From: a virus
Taxonomy: Duplodnaviria > Caudoviricetes
DNA length: 64,000 nt
Virus record (IMG/VR): IMGVR_UViG_3300021256_000072
Location: 32,001-96,000 of that record
Direction: 5' to 3' (one strand)
Part shown: positions 31,171 to 64,000 of the stretch, piece by piece
How the letters are laid out: each line of letters starts with the position of its first letter
Numbering within the stretch: the first letter of the stretch is position 1
Notes under the pieces: generated by a model
What the model was told of the DNA's origin: nothing
Database searches by the model: none
What the model saw: only the letters and a program-made list of their open reading frames with translations
Translations under genes and position numbers: made by a program

Positions 31171-32286
31171 TTACATATTATTATCTTTGTCTAAACCATA
31201 AATTTCAGAAGTAACTGAAAAAGCAAGATGTTTATTATCAACAGCTCCTTCTGCTCCTTGGCCTGTCCAGAAGATCTTAAAACTTCCTATTAAATAATTC
31301 TTTGTTACTAATTCAGGAAGTGGCTCACTCTCTTTATCTGCCTTAGTAATACCTCCTCCTATTGTGGTTATTTCTACGACATCTCCTATTCTATAATCTG
31401 GGAATGTTAATGATTTGATTTCACCATTTGAATAGAATTTCGAAGCATAATATCTTGAATTATAACTAGAAGCTTCCATTAATGAAGAGAATCCTTTAGA
31501 AAATATATTATACGAATCCCTATAAATCCTAGAAGAAATATTTACTGGAGAATACTTTGAATAATCTTTTTTAGTAAGATTTTCAGGAAGGTCTTTACTT
31601 TCTTTTTCCCAAGGATCATAAGCGTCTAAATTTAATAGGGGTGATATGGTTCTTATTGGGAATCTAGTAAATACTCTCGTTTTTCCAATAAACACTTTCA
31701 ACTTATTACTATCTTCTAGAATAGAGCTTGATATATCTCTAATAAAAAGATTACCACTCATATTATAACCAAAGATAGTAGCTGGTCTCCATCCTAGTGC
31801 TAATTTATTACAAAACTCTTGACCGGTTTCATTAATTTGGTTTATAGGCAAAGACGTAAGATCAGATACTGGCTCTACATTAGTATCGTACTCAGGAAAA
31901 TAAGTTCCTATAGCGTCTTCTATATTTCCATAAGATTGAGATACTGGTTTTGTAATAAATTCATCATTTCCCTGTGCAGTGCATATAAAATTGATATCTA
32001 GAAAATTATTAAAGTAACTTTTAGATACAATAAATACAGGGATAGTTAAAATATTACTGTCGTTATTATTATATTTTATTTCAATAGTCCCGGTAGAAAG
32101 CTCAGATATTTTCTTTAAGGTGTCTTCTGAATTATAATGAGATATCAGTTTCATAAACCCTGAAGCGACTATCCCTCCTATTCGTTCCTCGAGAGATAGA
32201 ACAGAAATGCTAAACCAGTCTTCTGTAGTCCAAGGCTTAAAATAAATAGATATACCATTAACATCTCCATTAACCTCTTTACTCAT
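31171..32286 (-). CDS. Baseplate hub (T4 gp27-like)
   Basis: 371 aa between the gp53-like and spike genes; QINETGQEFCNKLA and YRIGDVVEI patterns. Confidence 0.6.
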   Translation of the reverse strand: MSKEVNGDVNGISIYFKPWTTEDWFSISVLSLEERIGGIVASGFMKLISHYNSEDTLKKISELSTGTIEIKYNNNDSNILTIPVFIVSKSYFNNFLDINFICTAQGNDEFITKPVSQSYGNIEDAIGTYFPEYDTNVEPVSDLTSLPINQINETGQEFCNKLALGWRPATIFGYNMSGNLFIRDISSSILEDSNKLKVFIGKTRVFTRFPIRTISPLLNLDAYDPWEKESKDLPENLTKKDYSKYSPVNISSRIYRDSYNIFSKGFSSLMEASSYNSRYYASKFYSNGEIKSLTFPDYRIGDVVEITTIGGGITKADKESEPLPELVTKNYLIGSFKIFWTGQGAEGAVDNKHLAFSVTSEIYGLDKDNNM

Positions 32287-46450: not shown

Positions 46451-46807
46451 TTAATACTTTGATTCGTCGACTATAGTTACAAATCCCTCATTATCAATTA
46501 TCTTTTTTAGAACTTTAAAGAACGTTGATTCAGTTATTGGTGCTGAAGCTGACATAGTAAAAATATCATATTCCTGTTCCGTATCTGTTCTAACTGAAGG
46601 TTGTGCTAGTCTAATTACATCTGAGACATCATACTGATTATATTCTAAAGCTATTGGAAAATACACTTTAAACTTTTTAAGATCTTTACTAACACTTATT
46701 GAATCACTTGAAATTTCAGGAGAGATTTCATATTCAAAGATTTTCTGCATTTCAAGTTTTTTCTCAAAAGGGTCCTTCGCACCTTTTTTATTTCTTAATA
46801 TTATCAT
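46451..46807 (-). CDS. Small protein with basic MIILRNKK start; hypothetical
   Basis: 118 aa; start resembles MIILRR of 53985-54293. Confidence 0.55.
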   Translation of the reverse strand: MIILRNKKGAKDPFEKKLEMQKIFEYEISPEISSDSISVSKDLKKFKVYFPIALEYNQYDVSDVIRLAQPSVRTDTEQEYDIFTMSASAPITESTFFKVLKKIIDNEGFVTIVDESKY

Positions 46808-48084
46808 GTGAATATATTAAACTTAATCTTTGTTGAAAATAGCTTATTAAGTAGGTATTCAAACTCACTAATTGTGTCTAGAACATACGAATAAACTATT
46901 GCACCACCAGTATTAGTTCTATTGAGTTTTAATCTCATCGGGTTATAAAAAATTTCATCAATTAATTTATAGTCCTCTCCTTTAGCTGGCGTTGTTACTA
47001 TAAATCTTCCATTAATCAGCGTAATATTATTAGGAGCTGATTTATCATTTACAGTATAATGATTTTTATAATGTAACTTTATTAGCTCTTTTTCTAAGAA
47101 AGAGTTTCCGTATTCGCTCCTAGCTCTTTTTAAACCGTACTTAGCAGATTCTATAGAAGTTATTTTCTCTACAGATTTTCTAATTAACCCAATAATAGCA
47201 GAAGTACCTATTTTCTTCAAACTGCAGCCGCCTCTAGACTCATCTATTATATATTGTCCAGTTTGCCCGAGTATCCTGGCTACATCACTTTTAGATAGCT
47301 CGGGCACACTAAAAGACTTCTGACCTCCTTCTCCGGTTTCGTCATCCCTCTTTTCAGCAGCGTCTTGAATTCGATGTAATACTATGGCTTTCTCATTCAT
47401 TAAATTTATTTTTGTTTGTAATTTTTGAGAAAGCTCCATGATGAAGTTAGTAATTACATTATAATTTGTAAATGTTATATCAATGCTATAAGAATTAACA
47501 GTTCGATTTATAAGTTTAGAGCTGTAGTTAACCCCATAATATTTTTGAGTATAGAAATCTAAAATTTTAGAACATTCATCAATCTCTTTATCGTTCATTC
47601 CAAATGTATACATAGTCAAGCTATCATTTTGAATTGCGATATTGATTTTATAGTCTGTTACGTTTCTATCATTAAAGCTGAATTTTTCATCCATAGTCAT
47701 TCTATTATCAATGGAATCACCTACGCTTAATCCAGCTACTCTATACATTCCGAACTGTCTCCTGATATTTCTGTCAATTTCCTGAAACTTTATGGTTTTC
47801 ATTGGCCTGTGCATGTAGTTTTGGAAGAATTTTAACATTACAGCAGATGCAAAACCAACTTTAGCTCCTTGAATACCTCCTTGTAATCCTCCACCTATTA
47901 CTGAAGAATTATCATCAAAATGTCCCAAAACTCCTCCAGCCGCAGCCCCTATTCCTGATCCTATTAAAACCCCATTCTTAATATTATGAAATAAACTTGG
48001 GATTTCTTCCATATCTTTTGTCCCAGTAAAGTGACCCTCTGGAATTGTAAAGTTTTTTCTCTTTATTTTAAAAATTTTTCCCAT
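46804..48084 (-). CDS. Leader-bearing glycine-zipper protein, apparently two tandem units
   Basis: KIKRKNFT leader; GVLIGSGIGAAAGGVLG; internal QKSFS. KNFTIPEGHFTGTK resembles KEFSIQEGGFRGTK of 54320-55021. Confidence 0.65.
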   Translation of the reverse strand: MGKIFKIKRKNFTIPEGHFTGTKDMEEIPSLFHNIKNGVLIGSGIGAAAGGVLGHFDDNSSVIGGGLQGGIQGAKVGFASAVMLKFFQNYMHRPMKTIKFQEIDRNIRRQFGMYRVAGLSVGDSIDNRMTMDEKFSFNDRNVTDYKINIAIQNDSLTMYTFGMNDKEIDECSKILDFYTQKYYGVNYSSKLINRTVNSYSIDITFTNYNVITNFIMELSQKLQTKINLMNEKAIVLHRIQDAAEKRDDETGEGGQKSFSVPELSKSDVARILGQTGQYIIDESRGGCSLKKIGTSAIIGLIRKSVEKITSIESAKYGLKRARSEYGNSFLEKELIKLHYKNHYTVNDKSAPNNITLINGRFIVTTPAKGEDYKLIDEIFYNPMRLKLNRTNTGGAIVYSYVLDTISEFEYLLNKLFSTKIKFNIFT

Positions 48085-48086
48085 AA

Positions 48087-48707
48087 TTATCTTCTAATAA
48101 ATTTACCTACTTTTCCTAACAGCCCTCGAAGTTGTCCTGCTCCTTTCTTTACGGTATTATCAAGCTTCTTTCCAACTTCTCCTACTTTTTCTGGATTTAT
48201 TTTATTAGCCAGTTTTTCTGATCCAACTACACTATCTACTTTTTCAATAGACTTCTTTAATATAGGAATGTTATTAATTGTTTTCTCGGCAAATTTACTT
48301 CCAGCATTGGCCCAAGCTAGTGGATTCCAAGGTTGACCTGCCATTATTCCAGGAGCTATTCTAATTCCATTCACGATAGTTGAATTAACTGGAGCTTTTA
48401 TAGTATTTTTTACAAAACTAGCTCCGCCCTTAGATATAGTTTCTGCCGGTTTGTTGGTAAGATCTCTAGCAATTCCCTTTACATTGTTGATAGTATTGTT
48501 AGTGTTAGTAATAATTTGCCTTTTACTATTAATATCCAATGGTTTAGTCGGATTAGTCAAACGGTGCTTTATTACCCCATAATTATTCAGACCATTTTTA
48601 GCTGTAAGTTGTATTTTCGACCCTAGAGTTCTATCTGGCTGCTGTTTATTAACCCAAATATCTCTTAAGCTAACAAATATTTTCTGTCTTGGTATTCTCA
48701 TAGTCAT
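48087..48707 (-). CDS. Basic leader-bearing hypothetical protein
   Basis: MTMRIPRQKIFV start; Lys-rich amphipathic C-terminus. Confidence 0.6.
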   Translation of the reverse strand: MTMRIPRQKIFVSLRDIWVNKQQPDRTLGSKIQLTAKNGLNNYGVIKHRLTNPTKPLDINSKRQIITNTNNTINNVKGIARDLTNKPAETISKGGASFVKNTIKAPVNSTIVNGIRIAPGIMAGQPWNPLAWANAGSKFAEKTINNIPILKKSIEKVDSVVGSEKLANKINPEKVGEVGKKLDNTVKKGAGQLRGLLGKVGKFIRR

Positions 48708-48716
48708 TAAATCTAT

Positions 48717-49451
48717 TTACTCAACAAGTTCGCCAGACCAACCTGATTGTAGTGCAAATTGATCACATCTACTCCTAAGTTCCTGATAAGCTGCATCTAC
48801 GTTCCCTAATATATCAATAGACATTCCTGGCAGCTGTACACTGGCTTTAAGTTGACGTATATAATCTAACAAGTGACATAAACAAAGGTCTAAAAAATAA
48901 TCTCCTTTAGGTCCTCCGTCTTCTACATTCATCCAGTAAATAGCTGCTTTATTACTATCTTCATTGAAAGTTTTATCAGGAAGAAAATCAGGAATTATAG
49001 GTCTAGAACAGATTGCCTTAATGTAAAATCTGTCATTAAGTGGAAGGTCCCCCATGAATAAATAAGGTCTTCTATAGTCAGTAAAGTAAGAATAACTACC
49101 AGCCATCGGATACGAGCCCATAGATCTCCATTTAGGAATACAGTTAGGCACTAAAACTATCTGATCTTCTGAAATTAAACAATCTAACCATAAAGTAAAG
49201 TTAGATTTAATTTCATAATATCCCTCCATTCCATAACATGTTGACATCTGATCTCTACTTATCTTCATCTCCAATATTAATGGATTGGTTCTTTCAAATT
49301 CACGAAGAGCGTTTTTTATAATTTCTAATAAAATTTGATCACAGCTAAGAGAGTTATTTATGCTGAGAATCTCATTAAGAGAGTCAACAGCAATTAAAGC
49401 AGATCTAATAAAGATCTTTCTTTTTAAATCTGTTAATAATGTTTTTTCCAT
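48717..49451 (-). CDS. Neck protein / head-tail adaptor (T4 gp13-like)
   Basis: 244 aa; C-terminal SVQLPGMSID resembles the gp13-family VQLPGG motif. Confidence 0.6.
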   Translation of the reverse strand: MEKTLLTDLKRKIFIRSALIAVDSLNEILSINNSLSCDQILLEIIKNALREFERTNPLILEMKISRDQMSTCYGMEGYYEIKSNFTLWLDCLISEDQIVLVPNCIPKWRSMGSYPMAGSYSYFTDYRRPYLFMGDLPLNDRFYIKAICSRPIIPDFLPDKTFNEDSNKAAIYWMNVEDGGPKGDYFLDLCLCHLLDYIRQLKASVQLPGMSIDILGNVDAAYQELRSRCDQFALQSGWSGELVE

Positions 49452-49525
49452 CTCTGTTCCTCTTTTTTCTTGTATAAGAAGATAGTGATAAAAATTAATA
49501 TCTTGTAAGGAATTTAACTTTTCTA

Positions 49526-49537
49526 TCTATTTATAAG
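49526..49537 (-). promoter_or_regulatory. Putative late promoter CTTATAAATAGA (contains TATAAATA)
   Basis: Identical to 50837-50848; lies just after a terminator and upstream of the neck gene. Confidence 0.55.
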
Positions 49538-49544
49538 AAATAAG

Positions 49545-49582
49545 AAAAAATAAGTAGGGAATTGTATTTACCCTACTTATTT
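49545..49582 (-). terminator. Intrinsic terminator after 49599-50192
   Basis: AAATAAGTAGGG...CCCTACTTATTT 12-bp inverted repeat with U-tract on the minus strand. Confidence 0.8.
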
Positions 49583-49598
49583 AAAATATTTTATTTAC

Positions 49599-50192
49599 TT
49601 ATTCCCTGTCTCGATTTTTGTAATCATATAAACCTTTCGCAAGAGCCGAAGCACCTACAATACCAAGGCCTACGCCAACAGGGACAGCTGCTCTCCTCCG
49701 GTTTAGAGCTTTCTTTTCCAGACCTTCAACTGTCTTAAGTCTCTTATGTTCTGTTGTATTTCTCAAGTAGCTAAGGCGCTCTTTTTCAGCCTCTGTTAAC
49801 ATACCTGACTTTTCCAAATCAAGTATTCCTTTTCCACTCTCTAGCGCACGCATTTTAGCAACTTCACCACCTCTTTGCGCATCTCTAAGTACGTCCTTTT
49901 TGAGTCTATTAAGATCGGCTTCATACAATTCTTGGAGTGACTTCTTTAGTTTTCCTGCCTTTTCTAATTTATCTGCTGCTTTCTTTGAGAGCTTGTAAGA
50001 TCCATAGCCGCCAAGACCACTAATACTAGCTCCAGCACCTATACCAATCCCAGGTTTATATTTACCATACGTGCTTTCCTCATCAGCCTCTTCAGCCTCT
50101 TCAGCAAATTCCTTCTGAGCATACATATAACCTTCACAAAAAGCTCTTTCTTCTAAATCAGAAATAGAGCTAAAATTTTTTCTTATTCTCAT
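49599..50192 (-). CDS. Leader-bearing two-helix glycine-zipper protein (cassette A)
   Basis: MRIRKNFSSISDLEERAFCEGYMYAQKEFA leader; GIGIGAGASISGLGG and VGVGLGIVGASALA segments. Confidence 0.7.
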   Translation of the reverse strand: MRIRKNFSSISDLEERAFCEGYMYAQKEFAEEAEEADEESTYGKYKPGIGIGAGASISGLGGYGSYKLSKKAADKLEKAGKLKKSLQELYEADLNRLKKDVLRDAQRGGEVAKMRALESGKGILDLEKSGMLTEAEKERLSYLRNTTEHKRLKTVEGLEKKALNRRRAAVPVGVGLGIVGASALAKGLYDYKNRDRE

Positions 50193-50263
50193 ATTTTGTT
50201 TATGGTTTTAATTTATTTTCTTCTATCTATAAGAAATGTGAAGAAAAAAAAGAGGAATTAATC
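50101..50263. repeat. About 160-bp imperfect direct repeat, copy A (hairpin remnant + promoter + first 30 codons)
   Basis: Aligns with 50718-50879 from tcagcaaatt to gaggaattaatc; near-identical in the coding part, diverged in the 5' UTR. Confidence 0.9.
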
Positions 50264-50812
50264 TTCATTCTGACTATCTTTTTCAGCTAGCCAATCTTCA
50301 TAAGTCATCTTATTATTTGCCTTTTTATTGGCTCTATATATACCACCTGCGGTAAGTGCAGCAGCGCCTAAACCAAGTCCTCGATTGGTTAGTATAATTT
50401 TTTTAGTCCCTTTCTTTACAGCCGCCATTCCTTTCTTTCTTACCTCTCTTACTTTCTCTGCTTGTTCTGGCGTAAGACTCATACTTGTGTTTCCCGATTC
50501 TAATATGGCTTTATCTACACTATCAGCTACTTTTTTAATCAACTCTTTTTCATATTTATAAATCTTAGGCTCCATTTGCACATGGTTAGCAATACCTGCA
50601 GTACCCAATGCACTCATAACATAACCGCCCATGCGCTTCTTTTTGCGTTTTTCCATCTCATGCTCATAGGCCTGTCTGTCCAGTCTTTCCGCCATAGTAT
50701 CATTAGTAAGAATTTGATCAGCAAATTCTCTCTGAGCATACATATAACCCTCACAAAAAGCTCTTTCTTCTAATTCAGAAATAGAGCTAAAATTTCTTTT
50801 TTCTATTCTCAT
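50258..50812 (-). CDS. Leader-bearing two-helix membrane protein (cassette B)
   Basis: MRIEKRNFSSISELEERAFCEGYMYAQREFA leader; GGYVMSALGTAGIA and GLGLGAAALTAGG segments. Confidence 0.7.
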   Translation of the reverse strand: MRIEKRNFSSISELEERAFCEGYMYAQREFADQILTNDTMAERLDRQAYEHEMEKRKKKRMGGYVMSALGTAGIANHVQMEPKIYKYEKELIKKVADSVDKAILESGNTSMSLTPEQAEKVREVRKKGMAAVKKGTKKIILTNRGLGLGAAALTAGGIYRANKKANNKMTYEDWLAEKDSQNED

Positions 50813-50879
50813 ATTTTATTTACGTATTTTTTATAATCTATTTATAAGAAATGTGAAGAAAAAAAGAGAGGAATTAATC
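50718..50879. repeat. About 160-bp imperfect direct repeat, copy B
   Basis: Aligns with 50101-50263. Confidence 0.9.
50837..50848 (-). promoter_or_regulatory. Putative late promoter CTTATAAATAGA
   Basis: Contains TATAAATA about 27 nt upstream of the ATG at 50812; variant CTTATAGATAGA at 50222-50233. Confidence 0.55.
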
Positions 50880-50884
50880 CTCTC
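50859..50884 (-). terminator. Intrinsic terminator after the sheath gene
   Basis: Plus strand GAGAGGA-ATTAA-TCCTCTC preceded by A7 (U7 on the minus strand). Confidence 0.75.
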
Positions 50885-50937
50885 CTTCTCCTTAGATAAG
50901 GTATATGATTAGTTCTGAGTTAAGTCAATTATTTATA

Positions 50938-53310
50938 TTACTCCTCACTAGAAATATCCATACCTACGTCAAATGCTCTATTAACTACAGTAATATACTT
51001 AGTATCTCTAGAGTATTTCACATTTATTGTTACTTTAACCTTACTCTGTCTTGCTAAGGTTTCATCATACTTGCAAATAACCTTGTAATCGTCTACATTA
51101 TACTTGCAAGGCTGAATAACAGTGACAAAGTAATATTTTATAACGTCTTCTACATTATTACAAAGAACTTCTGAAATCTTCTGACCTATAAACTGTTTTA
51201 ATAACTGTGGGCAAGCTTTAGAAATACGTATCATAAGACGAGAGTTTCCATCGCTGCTCATTACAGTGTCTTCAGATTGCTTTGTATAATTGTCGTTCAT
51301 TATCCAAGTACTGGTCTGAATATCCCAAGTAACAGTATTTACTCGCTTGGTTAATAACAATTGTCTAGTTTTCTTATTAAACTCACATACTGGAGATTGA
51401 TATTGAACTAGACCGCCACCCTGACCAAATAATCCACGGAACTCTTCATTGTTTTTACGATTTCTTGCTACTGCTTCCCAATAAATTACGCTTGGAGATA
51501 TGTAATTTTCCCAACCTAAGGTACTTGAATCTAAATCCCAAGGGGCTGATGCATATAGTTTATAGGAATTTTGCGATAACTTCGAAATAGAATTACCAAT
51601 GGACATATAATTAGTAGAATTTATCGTACTAATTGGATAGAAGTAGTTTCCATTGATTGCCAAGTTAGCCATATAACTCTGGAAAGATGGAGTAGTATTT
51701 CCAAGATCAGACAAACCTTCAGTTACATAAACTTCGTCTTGTTCAAGTAAATCTATTGCATTTAATAAATCGGTATTACTAGCTTTTAATATCATGTATC
51801 TAGTTGGATCTACCTTTAAATCACAATAGATTTGGTCTTCTCCATTAGTTACATATAAATAATAATTACCGTTTACATTAGCAACAGTGCTTCCAACAAC
51901 AAAAGTGTCTTTAACTTCGTCTGATACTTGGTATAACTCTGACATAGAAGATTTCACTATATCAGCAGTTATTTTTCCAGTAGGTAATTCTGAGATTTCT
52001 TCCCAAGTAGTATTATCTGAGTTATATCCAGAGTAGTTTATTCCAAGATCATGAAGGTCTTTTGGTAAATTAAACCCAATCATGCTCATTTGCTTAACTA
52101 ACTCATCTACAGTAATATCACCCCTTCCTGAAATATTACCTACATTAAAGAATAGTACCTCTCCACTCAAGCTAGGATCATAGATAGCCACTTCGAAGAA
52201 ATCTCTGGCCTTTACAGCATCACTAACTTCAGCAGTACCGCCTTTAGTGAAAGTATCCAAAACTTCTTTAATAGGAGTAACCGCAGATTTACCAGTTGAA
52301 GTAAGAGATGTAAGTGAGTCTAGATTATTAGTAACTACTGCATCATGGTTAAATCTTCTAATTCTTACTCTGAGGTCACTAGCACTATTATAAGTATTTA
52401 CTGCATAATATTCAGGAGCCTCAAAATTAGAAAGCGAATTAGCATCGAGCAAGTTTAAAGATCCCCAATTTTCCTCTTTATTTTGTAAGTACTCTTCTAT
52501 TACAGATTGATTAGGTTCAGTCCAATCAGGTTGACAGAATACTAGATAACAGTTACCATTAGGGCATCTACTATCTGAGGTATCCAGCAATCTTTCTGCC
52601 ATATATACTTCCTCAAACTTAACTGACTTGATGTTGTTTGAAGTAGCATCTACCTCATTAGCATCTGAAGCATCAACATCTGAATAGAATTTATATGATG
52701 GAGAAAAGAATACTGAGGACTCATTCATTATGTTAACGAGTTCTGGAAGATTGTTAGCTGGAATATCATAAGCAGGACCATTATCTGTTACTCTATTTCC
52801 AACAATTCCAACTCCTTCAATATTTACCGACCAACCATCTGTAGAGTGGGCAGCTGAATCCCCGTCGAAATCTATTACAATTTTAAAAGGGGCTATCTGT
52901 TTTAGAATTGATCCATCTTTTAATAAATAGGTATTAGTATCATTTTTTTCAGCTGATTTTACAAAGTTTACTCCTTTGCTTTTTCCAGCACGAACAACTA
53001 ATAACGTATTTGATCCTGCCAATCTGTAAGCATTTGTCCACATTGTTGCAGGAAGAGTTGGATCATCATTTTCACCACAATCATACAGACTATTTAAACT
53101 ATCTATATAATCTTTAGTAATATCCTGAGATGCAAATTTATTTCTAAAATCCTTTTGACCTGTAACTAATGTTGGAACGGAAGGACCGGCATCTGCAAAG
53201 ATAACACAGCCAACTACTAAATCCTCACCAGTTGTAGGATTAATGGCTGTCGTTTTAACTTCTTCTCGAACTTTTACATAAGGTTCAAGAGTTTCTGTCC
53301 ATTGTGCCAT
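50938..53310 (-). CDS. Tail sheath protein
   Basis: 790 aa. PYVKVREE start, AGPSVPTLVT, LLVVRA; C-terminal RLMIRISK...QFIGQ...VKVTINVKYSRDTKYITV sheath pattern. Confidence 0.8.
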   Translation of the reverse strand: MAQWTETLEPYVKVREEVKTTAINPTTGEDLVVGCVIFADAGPSVPTLVTGQKDFRNKFASQDITKDYIDSLNSLYDCGENDDPTLPATMWTNAYRLAGSNTLLVVRAGKSKGVNFVKSAEKNDTNTYLLKDGSILKQIAPFKIVIDFDGDSAAHSTDGWSVNIEGVGIVGNRVTDNGPAYDIPANNLPELVNIMNESSVFFSPSYKFYSDVDASDANEVDATSNNIKSVKFEEVYMAERLLDTSDSRCPNGNCYLVFCQPDWTEPNQSVIEEYLQNKEENWGSLNLLDANSLSNFEAPEYYAVNTYNSASDLRVRIRRFNHDAVVTNNLDSLTSLTSTGKSAVTPIKEVLDTFTKGGTAEVSDAVKARDFFEVAIYDPSLSGEVLFFNVGNISGRGDITVDELVKQMSMIGFNLPKDLHDLGINYSGYNSDNTTWEEISELPTGKITADIVKSSMSELYQVSDEVKDTFVVGSTVANVNGNYYLYVTNGEDQIYCDLKVDPTRYMILKASNTDLLNAIDLLEQDEVYVTEGLSDLGNTTPSFQSYMANLAINGNYFYPISTINSTNYMSIGNSISKLSQNSYKLYASAPWDLDSSTLGWENYISPSVIYWEAVARNRKNNEEFRGLFGQGGGLVQYQSPVCEFNKKTRQLLLTKRVNTVTWDIQTSTWIMNDNYTKQSEDTVMSSDGNSRLMIRISKACPQLLKQFIGQKISEVLCNNVEDVIKYYFVTVIQPCKYNVDDYKVICKYDETLARQSKVKVTINVKYSRDTKYITVVNRAFDVGMDISSEE

Positions 53311-53341
53311 TTTATATTATATTATTTTCTAAAAAATTTAT

Positions 53342-53983
53342 TTAACCAACTTCTACTAAATAGACAGGATAACCACTTTTGATAAAATTTTCAACTATCC
53401 CAACTACTAAGCCGAGATCACTAGAAGCATCTGATATAGAAGTTATTGATATCTCATTGAATTTATCCTTCATATCCTGTCTAACTCTGCTGGATTTAGG
53501 AATTTTGGAGATTAATGCATTAGAAACATCCCTTAATTTAGGATCTTTAATAGCATTAACCAGGACTCTAAGATCTCCATTGACTCTAGCAATAGATATA
53601 CAAACCTTAAGTCTACCATCGCTCGCTTCTTTAGGATCTCTTGTAAAATCAATTCCTTCTTTATATCCAAGTTTTGTTAAATTTTCTACAACTAATTTCA
53701 TTAGTCTGTTATCTAAGGTTTTGCTTTTATTAATTTTTCCGGCAATTCCTTTGATCCCTTCCGCTAGTATACCAAGAGAAGCACCAACAATAGCTCCAGT
53801 GATAGTCGCAGCAGCAGCTCTTTGACCCCAACCATATCCTTGATGTCCGGGAACTAGACCAAGGTATTTAGCTAGTACGTCATTCTTTACAATTCCACCT
53901 ACGGCACCACCAATACTAGCCCCACCTACAGCTCCACTGATCATGGAATCTACGTACCCGAATTTCTTTTGTCTAAACTGCAT
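53342..53983 (-). CDS. Leader-bearing glycine-zipper protein
   Basis: MQFRQKKFG leader; GAVGGASIGGAVGG and GAIVGASLG. Confidence 0.7.
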   Translation of the reverse strand: MQFRQKKFGYVDSMISGAVGGASIGGAVGGIVKNDVLAKYLGLVPGHQGYGWGQRAAAATITGAIVGASLGILAEGIKGIAGKINKSKTLDNRLMKLVVENLTKLGYKEGIDFTRDPKEASDGRLKVCISIARVNGDLRVLVNAIKDPKLRDVSNALISKIPKSSRVRQDMKDKFNEISITSISDASSDLGLVVGIVENFIKSGYPVYLVEVG

Positions 53984-53984
53984 C

Positions 53985-54293
53985 TTAGAATAACTTTTTT
54001 ATAATGTTATTTTCTTTCTTTCTCTGTGAATCAACTCTCAACTCACTGTCGTTCTTCTCTAGGCTCTTATCAACTGAATTAAGAGATCTAGTTAATTTTT
54101 CCATAGCTTTTAACTGCTTTTCACTAGACTCTTTCAGTTGCTTATTTCTTGACATACTTAGATAAACTCCAGTCGCACTTAGACCTAAAGAAGTTAACGG
54201 TAATGTGGGAGATTCTTTTAAAAACTTTACCACCTTATCAGTTTTCCCTACGTTATTACTAAAGTTTTTACTACAACGTCTAAGTATTATCAT
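53985..54293 (-). CDS. Leader-bearing small protein (one hydrophobic helix plus coiled coil)
   Basis: MIILRRCSKNFS leader. Confidence 0.65.
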   Translation of the reverse strand: MIILRRCSKNFSNNVGKTDKVVKFLKESPTLPLTSLGLSATGVYLSMSRNKQLKESSEKQLKAMEKLTRSLNSVDKSLEKNDSELRVDSQRKKENNIIKKLF

Positions 54294-54319
54294 AATAAAT
54301 TGCTAATTAGAGTTTGGGT

Positions 54320-55021
54320 TTATCTCCTATTCCCAGTAATAACATTTAATTTAAATCCACTAGAAATTAATAGATCTACTACTTTACCTATAGTACCTTC
54401 AACAACAGACACTTCTACTTCATACGAATTTTTTCCAATTTTCACTGCAGTATAGTCTGCATTCTTAAAAGAAGAGCAATAAGAATCTAAAGCTTCATTT
54501 AAGCCAGTTAATTCTCTAGTATTTAAATCATTAACGTACAATACCAAAACACCACCACTACAGTAAATAGAGAGGGCGTATTTCTTCGGATCATCATCAA
54601 TAGCGTAGACAATACCAGCCGCACTTGGCCCATGGTTAATATTCTTAGTAGTTTTTCTTGAAATATTAAACTCCTCGCCAGTTGTTGGATCTACTTCACG
54701 AGAACTTGTAACAATTTCTTCGCTATCTGGATCCATAGTGCTGTTGTAATGTCTATCTAAGTAATTGATTATTGTAAAGGAATTAGTCTTAACTCTGGAT
54801 GAATTAAATATTGACTTTCTAGCAATATTAGCCATCCAAGTAGTAAAGGCGCCCACAGCAGCACCAATCCCAACCCCCACTATATTTCCTTTTCCAATAA
54901 CTGCACCAGCAATAGCTCCTGCTGCGGTTCCTGGAAGATAGGACTTATCTTTAGGTTGAATTTTTGTGCCACGGAATCCACCTTCTTGTATTGAAAATTC
55001 TTTTTGTCTAAATTTAATCAT
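54320..55021 (-). CDS. Leader-bearing glycine-zipper protein
   Basis: MIKFRQKEFS leader; GTAAGAIAGAVIG..VGVGIGAAVGA. Confidence 0.7.
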   Translation of the reverse strand: MIKFRQKEFSIQEGGFRGTKIQPKDKSYLPGTAAGAIAGAVIGKGNIVGVGIGAAVGAFTTWMANIARKSIFNSSRVKTNSFTIINYLDRHYNSTMDPDSEEIVTSSREVDPTTGEEFNISRKTTKNINHGPSAAGIVYAIDDDPKKYALSIYCSGGVLVLYVNDLNTRELTGLNEALDSYCSSFKNADYTAVKIGKNSYEVEVSVVEGTIGKVVDLLISSGFKLNVITGNRR

Positions 55022-55036
55022 TAGTTTAAGAAAGAA

Positions 55037-55483
55037 TTAATAAGAATATCCGTCACGCTGGGTCATATTACTTTTCCAATCAGCTCTTTCACGACGCATT
55101 GCCTGATTTTGAGCATAACCTAAGCGCTTGTTATAGGCATTATTTTCTGTTACCTGACCTCTTCTTTTATTTAATGCAGACAGACCAGCAATGGTACCGC
55201 CTACTAATGCCCCTACTTTACCGCCAGATTTAAGACCTCTAAGACCTCTTTTAACTGCATTAGCGTTGCCCATTATCCGCGGGGTTGATAAGCCCTTGTA
55301 AAGGCCACCAACTGCACCACCAACTCCAGCACCAATTGCAGCACCTGTGGCTGTTGCCAACAATGGTCCACCGTATCCTGGATTTTTTCTCTTCTCTTCA
55401 GCTAAGATATCTGAATCTTTCATTCTTTTCAAAGAATCTGTGTCATCGTACAGAGTATACAATTTTCTTCTCAATATATACAT
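55037..55483 (-). CDS. Leader-bearing glycine-zipper protein
   Basis: MYILRRKLYT leader; GAAIGAGVGGAVGG and GALVGGTIAG. Confidence 0.7.
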   Translation of the reverse strand: MYILRRKLYTLYDDTDSLKRMKDSDILAEEKRKNPGYGGPLLATATGAAIGAGVGGAVGGLYKGLSTPRIMGNANAVKRGLRGLKSGGKVGALVGGTIAGLSALNKRRGQVTENNAYNKRLGYAQNQAMRRERADWKSNMTQRDGYSY

Positions 55484-55494
55484 ATTACTTAATT

Positions 55495-56541
55495 TTAATT
55501 GATTTTCGAATTTTGATATTTTTCCCAGTTATAAGCATCACTATCTAATGCCTTTGTGGGAACCTTAACCGCCGCATTACCTAAACTACTAGCTCCTGTA
55601 AATACGCCGGCGCCGAGTCCAATTCCTATAGCAGCAGATGCCTTTCTATGGTTCATCATGAATTCACCAACGCCTTTCTGTATATTATTATCACCAGCTG
55701 TTTTTACTAGCTTAGCACCAACTCCTCCCATTGTTTTAGTATTTCCTACTCCTAGAAAGTTACTAGTAAGATTTCCTAATTTCTTACCAACTCTAGATAA
55801 GAAAAATCCTGGTGCATTAAATTGCTTTTGTTGGAATGGGGCGAAAGATCCCTTCGATTGTGCTTGCATCGCTTTAAGAGCCTGTTTTTCAGCCCTATAA
55901 GCTCCATAATTACCAACTCCTTCTAAAGCTGCAAATCCAGCGTTCAATGCTTGACCTCCTACTAAACTTTTGGCTTTTCCTAAGAAAGTTTTTCCAGCTC
56001 CTTCTGATGCAGCTTGTGCAGAGATAGGGTTCGTTAGTGCTGCTGAATAAAATTTCTGAGACTGATTTTGATTTGCGGCTGCTTTTAAGTCAATACCGCT
56101 TTTCTTTGCATCAGAATCAATTATCTTTCCAGTAACATAACCTCCAATTCCGCCGGTTATTCCAATACCTAATCCAAATTTTGCTTGGTTAGCTATTTTA
56201 GGATTTGCTTTATAAATATTTTTTGTTGTATCCCATAATTTAGAGAAAAATCCAGGAGTAGTAGGTGCCGCAAATAATTTAATTCTGTTTTTCATACCAA
56301 TATCACTATAATTTCTAGGCATACTAACAATACTAGCAGCTTCTGGATTCTTTTTAGCCAAGTTATTTATGGCAGCAGTTTGGGCATTAATAGCTTTCAC
56401 TTGCTCTTCAGCTTGCTTCTCTGCTTCTTCAGCTTGAGAACTGGATTGATACATACCTGCCGCCATGAGAGGTACACTAGCAGCAGTAGCAACACCAGCA
56501 ACAGCTTGTAGAAAGAACTCTTTTTGCCTAAATTTAATCAT
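55495..56541 (-). CDS. Leader-bearing Gly/Ala-rich protein, possible polyprotein
   Basis: MIKFRQKEFF leader; internal RNYS, KLFA, KFYS and KQFN sites separate hydrophobic segments. Confidence 0.7.
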   Translation of the reverse strand: MIKFRQKEFFLQAVAGVATAASVPLMAAGMYQSSSQAEEAEKQAEEQVKAINAQTAAINNLAKKNPEAASIVSMPRNYSDIGMKNRIKLFAAPTTPGFFSKLWDTTKNIYKANPKIANQAKFGLGIGITGGIGGYVTGKIIDSDAKKSGIDLKAAANQNQSQKFYSAALTNPISAQAASEGAGKTFLGKAKSLVGGQALNAGFAALEGVGNYGAYRAEKQALKAMQAQSKGSFAPFQQKQFNAPGFFLSRVGKKLGNLTSNFLGVGNTKTMGGVGAKLVKTAGDNNIQKGVGEFMMNHRKASAAIGIGLGAGVFTGASSLGNAAVKVPTKALDSDAYNWEKYQNSKIN

Positions 56542-56554
56542 GGTTATTTTAATT

Positions 56555-56869
56555 TTATCCCTGCACGTATTGCATGCTTTGTCCTAGTGATTGTAATCCA
56601 GACCCTGCCGCATTAGCTGCCGCACGACCTGCAAGATACGATCCAGCATATCCTCCAATGAGACCTAATGGACCACCTCCTAACATTGAAGCGAGAGTAC
56701 CTCCATAAGTAGCAGCAGCGGCTATACCTCCAGCAGTTTGACCAGCTTTGGATTTAGTTGCATCACCTAGAGACTCTACACCAGCCCCAACGCCATTAAC
56801 TAGACCCGCTCCAGTCTCTGAGATAACTCCGAATTGCTTGCTTTTTCGCTTAATTATGTATCTAGCCAT
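56555..56869 (-). CDS. Leader-bearing Gly/Ala-rich small membrane protein
   Basis: MARYIIKRKSKQFG leader; remainder is mostly Gly/Ala. Confidence 0.7.
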   Translation of the reverse strand: MARYIIKRKSKQFGVISETGAGLVNGVGAGVESLGDATKSKAGQTAGGIAAAATYGGTLASMLGGGPLGLIGGYAGSYLAGRAAANAAGSGLQSLGQSMQYVQG

Positions 56870-57138
56870 TTTCCTCTCCTTCCTTCATTTAATTCTGTAT
56901 TTAATTTCCTCATTTCATCCCGAAGGGTATTAGTTTGAGTAAGCTGTCTGAGGGTATCGTTTTTACCAAGACGATTAAAGTCTTGATCATAATTCCGATT
57001 TCTATTAAACCCAACAACTCCTCCAGACGTGTTAAGTGTCTTAGGTCTCGGGTTTTTATTACTTTTATTACAGCTATTAAACCCCTCATTATTAAGTCCA
57101 GGTGCAGAAAATCTTTTAAGTTTTAGTACTATAATCAT
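56854..57138 (-). CDS. Leader-bearing small basic protein
   Basis: MIIVLKLKRFS leader; overlaps both neighbours. Confidence 0.6.
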   Translation of the reverse strand: MIIVLKLKRFSAPGLNNEGFNSCNKSNKNPRPKTLNTSGGVVGFNRNRNYDQDFNRLGKNDTLRQLTQTNTLRDEMRKLNTELNEGRRGKWLDT

Positions 57139-57788
57139 GAGTTTAATAGATAAATATTGTAATTTAATCCGAATGGAAGAATGTTTAAGGCTTCTTTTAA
57201 ATTTCTGATGGCATTTTCTTTAGGACCATCAAACTCGAGTACTAAAGATCTGTCTCTCTTATCGTATTTAATAGCTTCTCCAATTAAAGAACGGATCTCA
57301 TACATAACATCATATCCATTCGTAGTGTTGTTGAGAATAGGATTTACATAAGGAACTCCACCACCATTATTTTGTTGGTTATTATTATTGTTTCCTTTGT
57401 TTTTCTTGCCAAACAACTTTTCTCTTAAAAGGAGATCTTCTACAGTTTCACTATTATTTTTCTGATAAAGAGGACCATTTCCTGCTCTTAACTCAATTTT
57501 AGCATTAAGCATCCTTCTTTGGTTAATAACTTCAGGCAATCTTACTTCATCAGGTAACTTAGCCTGTGCTCCGATTTTTAAATAGAGTCTGTACTTGTCT
57601 TTTCCGAATAAACTAGTGGAAATGACAAATCTCTCTATTAGAATGTTATTACCCCGGAGTATCTGAATTACAGAATTACGATCAATAACCTTAATACGAT
57701 CTCTCCACCAACCATCTCTATTTAATTCGGTGTAAAGAAGTCTCATAGCATCGTATTCTGTAAAATTTTTCTGTCTGAATTGTACCAT
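57135..57788 (-). CDS. Leader-bearing hypothetical protein
   Basis: MVQFRQKNFT leader; internal KLFG before an N/Q/G linker. Confidence 0.65.
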   Translation of the reverse strand: MVQFRQKNFTEYDAMRLLYTELNRDGWWRDRIKVIDRNSVIQILRGNNILIERFVISTSLFGKDKYRLYLKIGAQAKLPDEVRLPEVINQRRMLNAKIELRAGNGPLYQKNNSETVEDLLLREKLFGKKNKGNNNNNQQNNGGGVPYVNPILNNTTNGYDVMYEIRSLIGEAIKYDKRDRSLVLEFDGPKENAIRNLKEALNILPFGLNYNIYLLNS

Positions 57789-57794
57789 AATAAC

Positions 57795-58166
57795 TTAGCA
57801 AACTAGTGATAAATTATATTTTCGACCGAGTATATCTATTATGTCTAAGATAATTCCTTCATAATTACACTCTGCCGTGAAGATTCTATTTTTCTCGTCA
57901 ATATCTTTAATATCGAGTCTAAAAATATCTTTCAAAAGTTTCTCGGTATAACGATACAACTTTTTATCTTGAATTTTAATTTCGTAATTTCCACGATCAG
58001 TTTTAACAAAGGAAGTAATAACCATAGATCTACTATTGACTGAAGATACTCTATCCGCATCCTCTTTTTTAATACGATTGAATGGAATATTTTGTTCTGT
58101 TAAATAATCCATAGCTGTAGGCATCATATCCTGCAGTAATCCCTGTTTCTGTCTAAACGATATCAT
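57795..58166 (-). CDS. Hypothetical protein with MISFRQK start
   Basis: Shares FRQK but lacks the downstream aromatic residue. Confidence 0.6.
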   Translation of the reverse strand: MISFRQKQGLLQDMMPTAMDYLTEQNIPFNRIKKEDADRVSSVNSRSMVITSFVKTDRGNYEIKIQDKKLYRYTEKLLKDIFRLDIKDIDEKNRIFTAECNYEGIILDIIDILGRKYNLSLVC

Positions 58167-59269
58167 TCTTCTGAATTTGTAGTTATTGTCTTTTCTATTT
58201 CTTTCAAAATTTCATATCTATCGTCAAATAGCTCATAGAAATGCAACTCACACATAAATTGACATTGATATGAGAAATTTGAATTATCATCTGGTTGGTA
58301 TTGATGGTTGAAGTCTTCTGTTATTCCTCCCCACTTTATAGCTGCTGACCACCTCTTTCCATAACGATCATAAGTCTTGAATTCACAAAAATTTGTAAGA
58401 AGATCTACGTTACTATACTTATTTTTAAAGTCAAAGAATAGTACCATATCAGTAGTATGTAGTGTGAAATTAATTGGAAGCTTCTGTGAAATTAACCTAT
58501 TATCAATATCGCCGTAATATGGATGATTCTTTTTAATTGGGGTTTGTGAGAATTGATAAACTACATAAGAGGTTTTCTTTAAAGTTTCTTCTTTATTTTG
58601 TCTCACCAATTCCAACCCATAACCATCCAATATTCTTCTAATTTCCGTAATCGCTTGTTCTTGATAATCTACGGCTCTTATTACATAGTCGTCGTAATTC
58701 CTGCGTAATTGGAATATCTCGTCATTATCAGAAGTCAGTGTAAGATTGCTATTATTTTTGATAATTATTTTTGGGAAATTTTTCACAAACCAACAATTAG
58801 GCATAGGTCCTACTGGTTGAAGATATCTCAAATTACCCGAATAGAATAAAAATCTAATAAATTCAGGATCATTTGCGTCTTTTTTTGATACAACTATAGT
58901 AGTGTGCCAATAATCTTGACTAACCCTAGATTCACAATCACTTACTATTACAAGATTAATAATGTGATTATCTAGCGTAAGTTTTCTAAGTTTAAGATCA
59001 TTTAAAGAAACTATACAATCACCTAATCTTATTGGAATTCCGGTTTCTTCTAATTCCATAGATTTTCCAATTCTTTCAATACCTGTAAGATTAGCTATGG
59101 TTTCTGTAGTACTGCCTTCGGTATATGTAAGAGTTAAGGTAGAAGTTTTAAGATCTTCCACACAAGAATCTGATATACCTTTAACTGCATTAAAATATCT
59201 ACAGTTTGTGGCAAGCTTTAAACCTCTGTAAATAAACTCTTTCATAATAAAATTGATTTTTTTTACCAA
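58163..59269 (-). CDS. Hypothetical structural protein, possibly tail terminator/completion-like
   Basis: 368 aa. The C-terminal half has a tail-completion-like pattern (LPINFTLHT...YQCQFMCELHF); function weakly supported. Confidence 0.4.
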   Translation of the reverse strand: MVKKINFIMKEFIYRGLKLATNCRYFNAVKGISDSCVEDLKTSTLTLTYTEGSTTETIANLTGIERIGKSMELEETGIPIRLGDCIVSLNDLKLRKLTLDNHIINLVIVSDCESRVSQDYWHTTIVVSKKDANDPEFIRFLFYSGNLRYLQPVGPMPNCWFVKNFPKIIIKNNSNLTLTSDNDEIFQLRRNYDDYVIRAVDYQEQAITEIRRILDGYGLELVRQNKEETLKKTSYVVYQFSQTPIKKNHPYYGDIDNRLISQKLPINFTLHTTDMVLFFDFKNKYSNVDLLTNFCEFKTYDRYGKRWSAAIKWGGITEDFNHQYQPDDNSNFSYQCQFMCELHFYELFDDRYEILKEIEKTITTNSEE

Positions 59270-59706
59270 TACTTTTTTCTAAACTCAGAACGAGCATCGA
59301 AAACGACTTTCTGATTATTAAGTGCTGCAGCTGTAGAGACTTCACCGCTCTGCAATGCTTTGTTAGCAGCTGTAGAGACTTTACCGCTCTGCAATGCTTT
59401 GTTAGCAGCTGTAGAGACTAATGCATAATCATTTGCAGCTGATCTCATCATATTAGATCCTCTCTTACTTATCCAGTTACCAACACTATTATCTCCTATT
59501 GCGTTACCGAGAGATTTTACGCCACTTCCAAGCTTAGTATATCCTATATTTGCATACTTGCTTGCAGTCGCTCCAAGCATACCTTTTCTTGCTCCATAAA
59601 AAGTTCCAAGAGTTGCAGCAGTTCCAAGAACACCTTTTACTAAACCAGAGGTTCCTCCACCCTCTGCATTTTCTTCGCTATAAAATCTTTGTCTTAATAT
59701 TTTCAT
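59263..59706 (-). CDS. Leader-bearing Gly/Ala-rich protein with 13-aa tandem repeat
   Basis: MKILRQRFYS leader; GLVKGVLGTAATLG; VSTAANKALQSG[K/E] repeats. Confidence 0.7.
   Translation of the reverse strand: MKILRQRFYSEENAEGGGTSGLVKGVLGTAATLGTFYGARKGMLGATASKYANIGYTKLGSGVKSLGNAIGDNSVGNWISKRGSNMMRSAANDYALVSTAANKALQSGKVSTAANKALQSGEVSTAAALNNQKVVFDARSEFRKKYW
59327..59419. repeat. 39-bp tandem repeat, 2.4 copies, one mismatch
   Basis: Unit gcagctgtagagact-t[c/t]-accgctctgcaatgctttgtta. Confidence 0.9.
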
Positions 59707-59915
59707 TATCCTTCTTCTTTTAAAGGTTGTCCAGTTATTATATCCCCAGCTTTCTTAGTTGCATAAATACCTCCAGCGGTACCTACTACAGCAGTACCTA
59801 CAGCTAGCGGTTTTGCAACATTCATTACAGCAGTACCAGTATTTTTAATTGCACTTCCAATAGCCGCTGGATTAATAAATGCATATAACTTTCGCTTTAA
59901 AATAAATTTAGACAT
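59706..59915 (-). CDS. Leader-bearing small membrane protein (69 aa; start at 59915, not 59945)
   Basis: MSKFILKRKLYA leader, then AVGTAVVGTAGG. The longer start lies within the terminator hairpin. Confidence 0.65.
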   Translation of the reverse strand: MSKFILKRKLYAFINPAAIGSAIKNTGTAVMNVAKPLAVGTAVVGTAGGIYATKKAGDIITGQPLKEEG

Positions 59916-60025: not shown

Positions 60026-61471
60026 TTAGCCTATTTCAAACTCAACACGCTGTACCAATTCGTTAGCCATAGATCTTACACCCTCCTGATACCAGATACC
60101 AGATACCATCTGGGTAGGATTATTGTAGTTACCTACAGTTGGAGTATCAGTGATTGGCATATAGATACCACGAGCCAAAGGAGCCATTGCGCCATCTGCA
60201 GTCTTGTGGATAGCATAGAATACTGCTCTCTTCTTGTTGTTAACTACAGGCTCTACGATATCAGTAGAACGGAGAACTGGAATACCATCATACCAGCCGA
60301 GCAAGTCGTTGATGTAAGTCATCTTGGTATTCTTCTCGAACTTACCAATCTGTGAAGCTTTCTGGAACTGGTTACAAGCACGTGAGCCAGCAACGTAAGC
60401 AGTAATGTTCACACCTTTAACAGCCTTTTCAGCCAAAGCAGATTCTACGTCTACCAAGTAAGAGTCAAACATGTCAGAACGAGAACGCCATTCTGAGAAC
60501 TTACCGTTAAGTGCAGTTTCAGTCATTGAGAAACCATCTGTATCGGTACCCATGGTCAAGCCGGTGTAGCTATCTTCAAGAGTTCTAACCAAAGTTCTAT
60601 TGATAAGCTTGGTATAGAGTTCACGCAATTTAGTGAACATGAAGGTAGCGATATCAACGTTGAGGTCCTTCTTAGAAGCTGCAATAGAGGCGATGTTAGT
60701 TTCAGCCATCAAAGTATCAGGCACGGTAGCGAGATACAACTGCTGCATCTTAGCAAGGAATCTCTTGTCATTTGCATGAGCGTTAGATGCGCCATTAGTG
60801 TTGCAAGGAGTACCAGTTACATCTTCCTTACCCAAAACGGTAATAACTTCAGTAGGATTGGTTACCAAAGTGAAAGCGATAGTACCGTTAAGATAATTGA
60901 TGCTAGATGAAGCGAGCTTATTAGCGATAGACATCAAGCTGCCACGACCATTATCAACCAATTCATAGCTGTCAGTATTTTCAACCAACTTAACACGAAC
61001 TGAACCTGGGATAATCTTACGACCAGTGATAACCTGATAATCTTTAACGCTAGGGTTAGCACTAGGAGTTACTTCAGTAGTGAAGCCACCAGTAGTCTGA
61101 ATATCTGCATAGTTGTCTGGACCCAAGTTAGGGATAACAGTACGCATATCAGTTACACCCAAAACGTCATACCAGTAGAACAATCCGTTTGGATGTTCGA
61201 AATCACGTTCAACTGACATAAAACCAGCGAAAGAGCTTACGTAAGAAGCTACAGTTGCATCAAAATACTGGGTAGACAAAAGTGGGGTTTCTGCATAACC
61301 AGAGAAGGTCTTCTCAAGAAGATTCTTTTCTGAAACATAGTCGTCGGTGCGTGAGAACAACTTGCTATATTCGTTTGCTCTGTGAGTAGCATCGTCAAGT
61401 GATCTAGAAGTACCCATCAAAGCAGATACTAATTGTGGATCATTAAAATATTCTGAATATGTATTATACAT
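60026..61471 (-). CDS. Major capsid protein (HK97 fold, T4 gp23-like)
   Basis: 481 aa after an acidic scaffold. ERDFEHPNGLFYWYD, LGWYDGIPV and ARGIYMP resemble gp23-type segments. Strongly biased codon use and its own terminator. Confidence 0.8.
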   Translation of the reverse strand: MYNTYSEYFNDPQLVSALMGTSRSLDDATHRANEYSKLFSRTDDYVSEKNLLEKTFSGYAETPLLSTQYFDATVASYVSSFAGFMSVERDFEHPNGLFYWYDVLGVTDMRTVIPNLGPDNYADIQTTGGFTTEVTPSANPSVKDYQVITGRKIIPGSVRVKLVENTDSYELVDNGRGSLMSIANKLASSSINYLNGTIAFTLVTNPTEVITVLGKEDVTGTPCNTNGASNAHANDKRFLAKMQQLYLATVPDTLMAETNIASIAASKKDLNVDIATFMFTKLRELYTKLINRTLVRTLEDSYTGLTMGTDTDGFSMTETALNGKFSEWRSRSDMFDSYLVDVESALAEKAVKGVNITAYVAGSRACNQFQKASQIGKFEKNTKMTYINDLLGWYDGIPVLRSTDIVEPVVNNKKRAVFYAIHKTADGAMAPLARGIYMPITDTPTVGNYNNPTQMVSGIWYQEGVRSMANELVQRVEFEIG

Positions 61472-63759: not shown

Positions 63760-64000
63760 TTATAAAACACTCACATGGTCTCCACTGATTCGAATGATTC
63801 CACGATTTTTCAGAAGATCTAAAATACCTGATGGAGCATCCGGATAACGATCTTCAATTGTACTCTTGAATGAAGGATACTCTAAGGTAGAACCCCCAAA
63901 CTCTGCTCTTAAGTCATTTAAAATGCCAGAGTCTTCAGCCCAGCTACCTAGACTGCATGATGGTTCTGAATCAAGCCCGTGAGCCTTCTTAATCATTATA
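63760..64000 (-). CDS. Hypothetical protein, possibly the 3' part of a longer gene starting outside the window
   Basis: Frame is open to the window edge; ATG at 63996 may be internal. Confidence 0.5.
   Translation of the reverse strand, partial: IMIKKAHGLDSEPSCSLGSWAEDSGILNDLRAEFGGSTLEYPSFKSTIEDRYPDAPSGILDLLKNRGIIRISGDHVSVL

Follow-up and report, generated by a model that had tools for sequence, protein, structure and literature searches.

The DNA analysed here (the window) is a stretch of 64,000 nucleotides (nt) comprising bases 32001–96000 of a single 106,463-bp viral contig (IMG/VR record IMGVR_UViG_3300021256_000072). Window positions 46451–59915 encode an array of proteins with related short, basic N-terminal leaders. 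With a probability of roughly 0.68, these leaders belong to a propeptide or capsid-targeting system of the phage T4 type with a basic/aromatic cutting rule, in which the leader-bearing proteins (carriers) would be loaded into the head and trimmed by a protease with the fold of T4 gp21. All genes from about 46000 through the window end to genome position 102731 lie on the minus strand in the open reading frame (ORF) map, and this run is interpreted from its sequence as the block for head assembly in a jumbo gut phage that has not been cultured and whose head genes are of the T4 type. The carriers are about two dozen proteins of the block, each with a hydrophobic-basic leader of 7–13 residues that ends in a putative cut site.

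The core motif was defined as the four residues [KR]-x-[FY]-[STGA] and was scored within residues 1–22 of the products of 100 greedily called genes. It was found at the N-terminus of 20/100 genes of the contig, every one at genome positions 78007–102731. This 25-kb head block thus includes 20 genes with an N-terminal motif among 35, versus none among the 65 genes elsewhere (Fisher p = 6e-12). Shuffled N-termini gave 5.3 ± 2.2 genes with the motif (maximum 14 in 2000 shuffles), and later 22-residue windows of the same proteins gave only 3–6. In 18/20 of the N-terminal carriers, the aromatic residue of the motif occupies position 7–13. Within 46451–59915, 12 ORFs have the strict core motif ending at residue 7–13, the 348- and 206-amino acid (aa) proteins have a relaxed form with F or V after the aromatic residue, and the 123- and 118-aa ORFs have only the first half of the leader. 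Seven more leader genes are upstream of the capsid gene, mostly past the window end; they include the genes for the scaffold, a 290-aa zinc-ribbon protein, a portal-like protein and three small proteins between the portal-like gene and the protease. A first-pass annotation of this DNA had listed 14 leaders and two partial ones as a candidate capsid cargo-loading system. All 16 ORFs are on the minus strand with the starts and peptides that it gave, and the motif is confined to head-associated genes, as it had foreseen, and is not equally frequent outside them.

The genes of the array and those of the predicted substrates are as follows, with a slash marking the presumed cut and with ortholog counts for four families referring to non-redundant orthologs.

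46451–46807, minus strand: 118-aa ORF; partial leader MIILRNKK..., no aromatic-small end and no core motif.
46804–48084, minus strand: 426-aa protein; leader MGKIFKIKRKNF/T, four internal core motifs and a Gly-rich stretch.
48087–48707, minus strand: 206-aa protein; relaxed leader MTMRIPRQKIF/V, the V after the aromatic residue being outside the strict motif.
49599–50192, minus strand: 197-aa protein; leader MRIRKNF/S, then a pro-module ending in ...AFCEGYMYAQKEF/A.
50258–50812, minus strand: 184-aa protein; leader MRIEKRNF/S and a pro-module as in the 197-aa protein.
53342–53983, minus strand: 213-aa protein; leader MQFRQKKF/G, Gly-zipper stretches and a C-terminal domain; site in 14/14 orthologs.
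53985–54293, minus strand: 102-aa protein; leader MIILRRCSKNF/S.
54320–55021, minus strand: 233-aa protein; leader MIKFRQKEF/S and a Gly-zipper stretch, with Gly-zipper Pfam matches below threshold.
55037–55483, minus strand: 148-aa protein; leader MYILRRKLY/T, then a conserved DDTDSLKRMKDSDILAE block; site in 17/17 orthologs.
55495–56541, minus strand: 348-aa Gly/Ala-rich protein; relaxed leader MIKFRQKEF/F and three internal core motifs.
56555–56869, minus strand: 104-aa Gly-rich protein; leader MARYIIKRKSKQF/G.
56854–57138, minus strand: 94-aa protein; leader MIIVLKLKRF/S; site in 17/17 orthologs.
57135–57788, minus strand: 217-aa protein; leader MVQFRQKNF/T; site in 22/22 orthologs.
57795–58166, minus strand: 123-aa protein; conserved half-leader MI.F[RK].K without an aromatic-small end, compared over 24 distinct ortholog N-termini.
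59263–59706, minus strand: 147-aa protein; leader MKILRQRFY/S.
59706–59915, minus strand: 69-aa hydrophobic protein; leader MSKFILKRKLY/A from an ATG start.
60026–61471, minus strand: major capsid protein of the gp23 type; two invariant motif copies before the mature part.
61498–63729, minus strand: 743-aa acidic scaffold-like protein; 15 core motifs.
63760–64000, minus strand: 3' part of the gene for the 290-aa zinc-ribbon core protein, which continues past the window end.
Genome 96632–97855, in the minus-strand block just past the window end: 407-aa protease, between the small core proteins and the 290-aa protein.

The ORF at 59915 more likely starts at the ATG (MSKFILKRKLYA), because the TTG-extended form overlaps a hairpin just after the capsid gene.

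The motif that ends the leaders also marks the capsid propeptide, the scaffold, a linker in the protease and the N-terminus of the portal-like protein, and cleavage is predicted in each of them. The scaffold-like protein is strongly acidic (28% Asp + Glu, isoelectric point (pI) 4.05, net charge −168). Its 15 motif copies compare with 2.0 expected from the genome-wide composition or 0.7 from its own composition, and its orthologs have 11–20 copies each versus 0.4–1.2 expected. The 290-aa protein has seven core motifs, two of them in the first 25 residues, and its orthologs have 5–9. In the capsid protein, K-[LM]-F-S near residue 40 and K-T-F-S near residue 57 are invariant in 23 distinct relatives, and the copy near residue 57 directly precedes the highly conserved mature part. 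The portal-like protein, whose portal role is assigned by position, has conserved sites at about residues 12 and 46, ahead of its conserved part. The gene order, namely portal-like protein, small core proteins, protease, core/scaffold proteins and capsid, is that of T4. The earlier suggestions that the motif fills the scaffold and the capsid N-terminus, and that the leader end is a putative maturation-protease site, are supported: the motif behaves like a cut site, being over-represented in the scaffold, in the linker of the protease and at the N-termini of the capsid and portal-like proteins, and it is kept in relatives.

The capsid protein has no direct Pfam match. Its gp23 type is indicated by the 30 nearest Atlas clusters, 26 of which include PF07068 (Gp23) in 22–70% of their members (scores 0.97–0.98). 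No match was obtained when the capsid protein, the 790-aa protein of the array and the protease were compared by tblastn with GenBank phages, or when alignments of these three and the portal-like protein were used in profile searches of PDB sequences.

The protease has H50, S136 and D163 invariant in 16 aligned sequences, which gives a putative catalytic order of His, Ser and an acidic residue. A poorly conserved linker after its N-terminal domain holds K-x-F-S sites in 16/16 sequences. The top three Foldseek matches of its AlphaFold2 (AF2) model, which has a mean predicted local distance difference test (pLDDT) score of 72, are chains of 5jbl, T4 gp21 (probability 1.0, E = 5e-4 to 1e-3, template modelling (TM) score by target 0.49–0.56); the human cytomegalovirus (HCMV) and herpes simplex virus (HSV) proteases match with lower scores. 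No Pfam match was found in the 16 members, and PHROG 207 'head maturation protease' was matched at E = 0.002 in 3/16. A profile search of 1.8 billion representative proteins recovered 241 clusters of protease homologs. In 30 distant full-length homologs, motifs cluster at residues 160–260, right after the protease domain; therefore, the cutting rule appears to belong to the whole clade. Many database proteins of 245–395 aa match only the C-terminal helical domain of the protease, at their own residues ~90–250, and this domain may be a capsid- or core-anchoring module common to other proteins. A relationship between the C-terminal domain and the 290-aa protein was considered and rejected.

From the distribution of the motif, [KR]-x-[FY] is the most likely target of the protease, with the cut probably right after the aromatic residue and before the small residue, which is usually Ser. 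A consensus of the hydrophobic-x-Glu type, ending in Glu, was not seen in the leaders, which end in [KR]-x-[FY]-[STGA].

The leader may be more than a cut site. Counted back from the cut, N-terminal copies are hydrophobic at P6 (six residues before the cut) in 84% and basic at P5 in 68%, as compared with 43% and 17% at internal sites of head proteins and 38% and 7% at background sites elsewhere in the genome. The mean net charge is +2.9 for the leaders and +0.3 for other N-termini. In an all-vs-all profile comparison, several family pairs align only over the first 9–13 columns, i.e. the leader, and other pairs share Gly-rich stretches only. Thus, as in a T4-type system, a short N-terminal peptide is common to otherwise unrelated head-module proteins. 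The AF2 model of the 217-aa protein shows residues 1–10 as unstructured and a fold that begins at residue 11; an Atlas search with this protein gave no usable match. By analogy with the T4 capsid-targeting sequence, the extra P6 and P5 positions, the charge and the unstructured state of the leader would fit an address function, and the hyper-acidic scaffold would be the obvious docking partner for a cationic leader. The idea of an address-like leader is consistent with the finding that the extra hydrophobic and basic positions of the N-terminal copies are mostly missing from internal sites.

Leader codons vary synonymously (TTT/TTC; AGA/CGT/CGA/AGG; AAA/AAG; four Ser codons), and the DNA upstream of leader genes is not conserved; therefore, selection acts on the peptide, and conservation of the leaders at the DNA level was rejected.

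Capsid homologs with 59–66% identity occur on IMG/VR contigs of up to 401 kb. To judge from contig size, these relatives are probably 'Jug' jumbo gut phages, which have genomes of 360–402 kb and predicted Bacteroides/Phocaeicola hosts and account for ~1% of human gut metagenome reads (PMC12880540). The report on these phages includes no virion data and does not mention leaders or virion proteins (PMC12880540). Nine array families (213, 102, 148, 348, 104, 94, 217, 123 and 368 aa), all located between the capsid gene and the 790-aa gene, are syntenic in 63–79 loci at 25–65% identity. This indicates that much of the array is conserved core and not variable cargo. The earlier proposal of a large cargo set was overstated in this respect, many of these genes being conserved core head-module genes. 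The N-terminal motif is present in 120/120 database homologs of the 217-aa family, in which the x position is free and the flanking positions are held. In the 94-aa family, leader lengths differ by indels and the K/R-x-F/Y-S end is always kept. Related 21-kb loci contain 5–16 leader ORFs each, versus 0–2 among antisense control ORFs. No ortholog of the 118-aa ORF was found in the relatives' loci, which reach only ~10 kb from the capsid gene. An exact MIKFRQK scan of viral contigs mainly recovered what are probably the two head-module copies (spacing 1,220 nt). In some relatives the protease gene is in two ORFs (locus L003, 5182–5412 and 5625–6608). This split agrees with the published finding that Jug phages often have group I introns; there is no Rfam match in the window itself.

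The carriers are basic, with a median pI of 9.7 and 18/20 above 8.5, as compared with a median of 5.2 for the other 80 genes (p = 7e-9). T4 internal proteins are likewise basic. Five or more GxxxG motifs occur in 8 of the ~16 carriers of the region and none in the remainder; the GxxxG density of the region's carriers is ~4 times the genome median. Hence the statement that most cargoes carry GxxxG is correct for one half and not for the other, and the description of the set as membrane-biased was too strong, about half being without Gly-zipper stretches. Pfam Gly-zipper matches of the carriers were all below threshold. To judge from these stretches, a membrane-active role could be considered for the Gly-zipper half of the carriers.

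Three other explanations of the array were weighed. It is unlikely that the carriers are assembly-only core proteins, like T4 gp67 and gp68, which would be degraded and gone before DNA packaging, so that nothing is stored or delivered. Such a fate would agree with the multiple sites in the 426-aa (five core motifs versus 1.1 expected), 348-aa (three and the leader) and 290-aa (seven) proteins, with the conservation of many families as core genes of the module and not as a variable set, and with the degradation of gp22, gp67 and gp68 in T4 (PMC9958956). However, most carriers have a single N-terminal site, clipping of which would leave intact basic proteins of ~6–25 kDa, too large to escape as peptides, and the 348-aa family shows little positional conservation of its internal sites (5/15, 5/15 and 10/15 orthologs). 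For the same reason, the 348-aa protein was rejected as a polyprotein.

A basic N-terminus could also be a positive-inside region or a secretion signal, e.g. of holin-like or exclusion proteins, unrelated to the head protease. In about half of the carriers, the leader is indeed soon followed by Gly-rich stretches of moderate hydrophobicity, and there are weak Gly-zipper and bacteriocin-like Pfam matches below threshold. This explanation is nevertheless very improbable, since the 217-, 94-, 102- and 184-aa carriers have no hydrophobic segment, the same four-residue motif recurs densely in the soluble scaffold, the capsid protein and the linker of the protease, the leaders lack an A-x-A, lipobox or GG end, and none occur outside the head block. 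A Sec or lipoprotein signal was rejected on the absence of a hydrophobic segment in several carriers and on the aromatic-small end, which is neither A-x-A nor a lipobox. A double-glycine bacteriocin leader was rejected as well: there is no GG end, the Bacteriocin_IIc Pfam match is below threshold (E = 0.05), and no C39 peptidase/ABC exporter was found among the genes scanned against family libraries. Common descent through gene duplication might have left the leader behind as a relic, or it might reflect the way translation starts in AT-rich late genes, the peptide itself having no role; either is scarcely credible. The 184- and 197-aa genes are recent 5' duplicates and the leader codons are AT-rich, but several family pairs share nothing beyond the leader in the profile comparison, the codons vary synonymously, and the capsid and 790-aa proteins, presumably highly expressed, have no leader. 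Moreover, the aromatic-small end survives indels and persists in relatives whose array proteins are 25–65% identical.

Several observations weigh against the capsid-targeting interpretation preferred here. No isolate or virion proteome of the lineage is mentioned in the literature searched. The protease is likened to gp21 by fold only, in a model with a mean pLDDT of 72. The 217-aa family has two conserved parts separated by a hypervariable linker, and this linker includes a site that resembles an N-terminal leader; the 'leader' could therefore be just an extended protease site, and its address role is drawn by analogy. The 123- and 118-aa proteins keep the half-leader without a cut motif, and Gly-zipper stretches are confined to about half of the carriers. 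Finally, the contig probably covers part of a larger genome, the rest of which could encode leaders outside the head block.

In the proposed mechanism, the cationic leader would bring each carrier into the prohead core on the strongly negative scaffold. As suggested by the places of the motif and their conservation, the activated protease would free itself at its linker, chop the scaffold into short peptides, remove ~57 residues from the capsid protein and clip the leaders. More speculatively, the trimmed, mostly basic proteins would stay in the head with the DNA and probably leave with it at infection, and the Gly-zipper half of the carriers could insert into host membranes. A fuller scenario is doubtful. 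It supposes that a widespread clade of jumbo gut phages retuned a gp21-type protease from Glu to an aromatic residue and that a cationic tag docks on a hyper-acidic scaffold and loads at least 20 basic proteins, the Gly-zipper members of which would be ejected as a DNA path through the Bacteroidales envelope or as first-wave effectors.

The closest known system is that of T4, in which gp21 trims the internal proteins, degrades gp22, gp67 and gp68 and removes 65 residues from gp23 (PMC9958956). The T4 capsid-targeting sequence (IPII/IPIII, and the IPI and Alt propeptides) is likewise an N-terminal peptide of ~10 residues on unrelated basic head-internal proteins (PMC9958956). In T4 the cut at the leader end is made by a gp21-fold protease, which also trims the capsid protein and breaks down the scaffold; the same is predicted here, and the head genes follow the same order. 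The systems differ in the cutting rule, which is basic-x-aromatic followed by a small residue here and hydrophobic-x-Glu in T4, and in the number of carriers, ~20–25 here and a handful in T4. Further differences are the strongly cationic leader, the extremely acidic scaffold and the Gly-zippers in half of the carriers.

In phiKZ and SPN3US, one A-x-E rule marks capsid, portal, ejection proteins and protease, with Ser favoured after the cut in SPN3US gp245 (PMC10052503). Like the phage described here, phiKZ, 201phi2-1 and SPN3US (proteases gp175/gp245; S/A/G-x-E or A-x-E) are jumbo and myovirus-like. They have many head proteins cut at one motif, with portal, capsid and protease among the substrates, Ser favoured after the cut and a self-cleaved C-terminal part of the protease (PMC10052503), all of which is predicted here too. 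However, the SPN3US propeptides mostly have 111–254 residues and nine substrates are known, as compared with mostly 7–13 residues here. No sequence similarity was detected, and a different residue precedes the predicted cut. Herpesvirus assemblin, which cuts Ala/Ser in the scaffold, shares the protease fold class and, as predicted here, Ser after the cut and the scaffold as substrate. It takes a small residue before the cut, in contrast to the aromatic residue predicted here, and no family of N-terminally tagged cargo proteins is known in herpesviruses. P22 gp7, gp20 and gp16 and T7 gp14, gp15 and gp16 are stored in the head and are presumed to open a route across the cell envelope. By this resemblance, the Gly-zipper carriers could, speculatively, play a similar role; those ejection proteins are not known to share a cleavable leader, and no homology was found.

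Thus, the novelty first claimed for the array was overstated, the principle being known from T4 internal proteins and from phiKZ/SPN3US propeptides (PMC9958956, PMC10052503). The new elements are the predicted cutting rule and the lineage; literature searches turned up no description of a prohead-protease motif with an aromatic residue and no mention of leaders in Jug phages. The finding would extend the gp21/assemblin class of proteases by a basic/aromatic specificity. A simple sequence rule of this kind would predict which orphan genes of such phages encode head-internal proteins and would point to candidate ejection proteins of Bacteroidales phages. The short leader might also serve to package foreign proteins into such capsids.

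Three conserved proteins without a leader are encoded inside the array:

48717–49451, minus strand: 244-aa conserved protein.
50938–53310, minus strand: 790-aa conserved protein.
58163–59269, minus strand: 368-aa conserved protein.

The label 'sheath' given to the 790-aa protein by the first-pass annotation was not confirmed by any library. No usable match to Pfam, PHROGs or NCBIfam was obtained for the capsid, portal-like, 790-, 368-, 244- and 145-aa proteins or for the small carriers.

The 184- and 197-aa proteins are alike over residues 1–37 only in the profile comparison, and an 84-nt DNA repeat with 93% identity matches this common part of the two genes. On this sequence match, the 184-aa gene is identified as a tandem, recent 5' duplicate of the 197-aa gene. 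Both proteins, and a 203-aa protein encoded past the window end (genome 98034–98645), have a second shared pro-module, ...AF-x-E/D-G-Y-x-Y-A-Q-[KR]-E-F-[AT], with motif copies at both ends. In some relatives, the pro-module (...AF.DGY.YAQKEF/T) stands in place of the short leader on the orthologs of the 148-aa protein. The AF-x-E/D-G-Y pro-module may act as a docking helix in its own right.

No Rfam family and no tRNA was found in scans of the window. Sigma-70 promoter-like sites in the window are no commoner than in shuffled sequence, and terminator-like sites are rarer. A repeated AT-rich element with CTAT(C/T)TATAAGAAAT is found on the plus strand at 49515–49554, 50211–50250 and 50826–50865, upstream of the 244-, 197- and 184-aa genes, respectively, and could be a late promoter outside the reach of the sigma-70 scan.

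Outside the head block, a 371-aa protein (window 31171–32286, minus strand) has five core motifs at residues 204–283 versus 1.0 expected; this cluster may be due to chance or may mark a processed tail or baseplate protein. Window 27118–29088 (plus strand) and genome 103539–105518 (minus strand) each encode a protein of ~657 aa; the two resemble each other at the N-terminus and match no known family. The former gene is followed by a formate/nitrite-transporter-like gene (29085–29708; Pfam E = 4e-19). Inside the head block and past the window end, a gene for an N-acetylmuramidase endolysin with a peptidoglycan-binding domain (genome 101353–102147) adjoins the portal-like gene.

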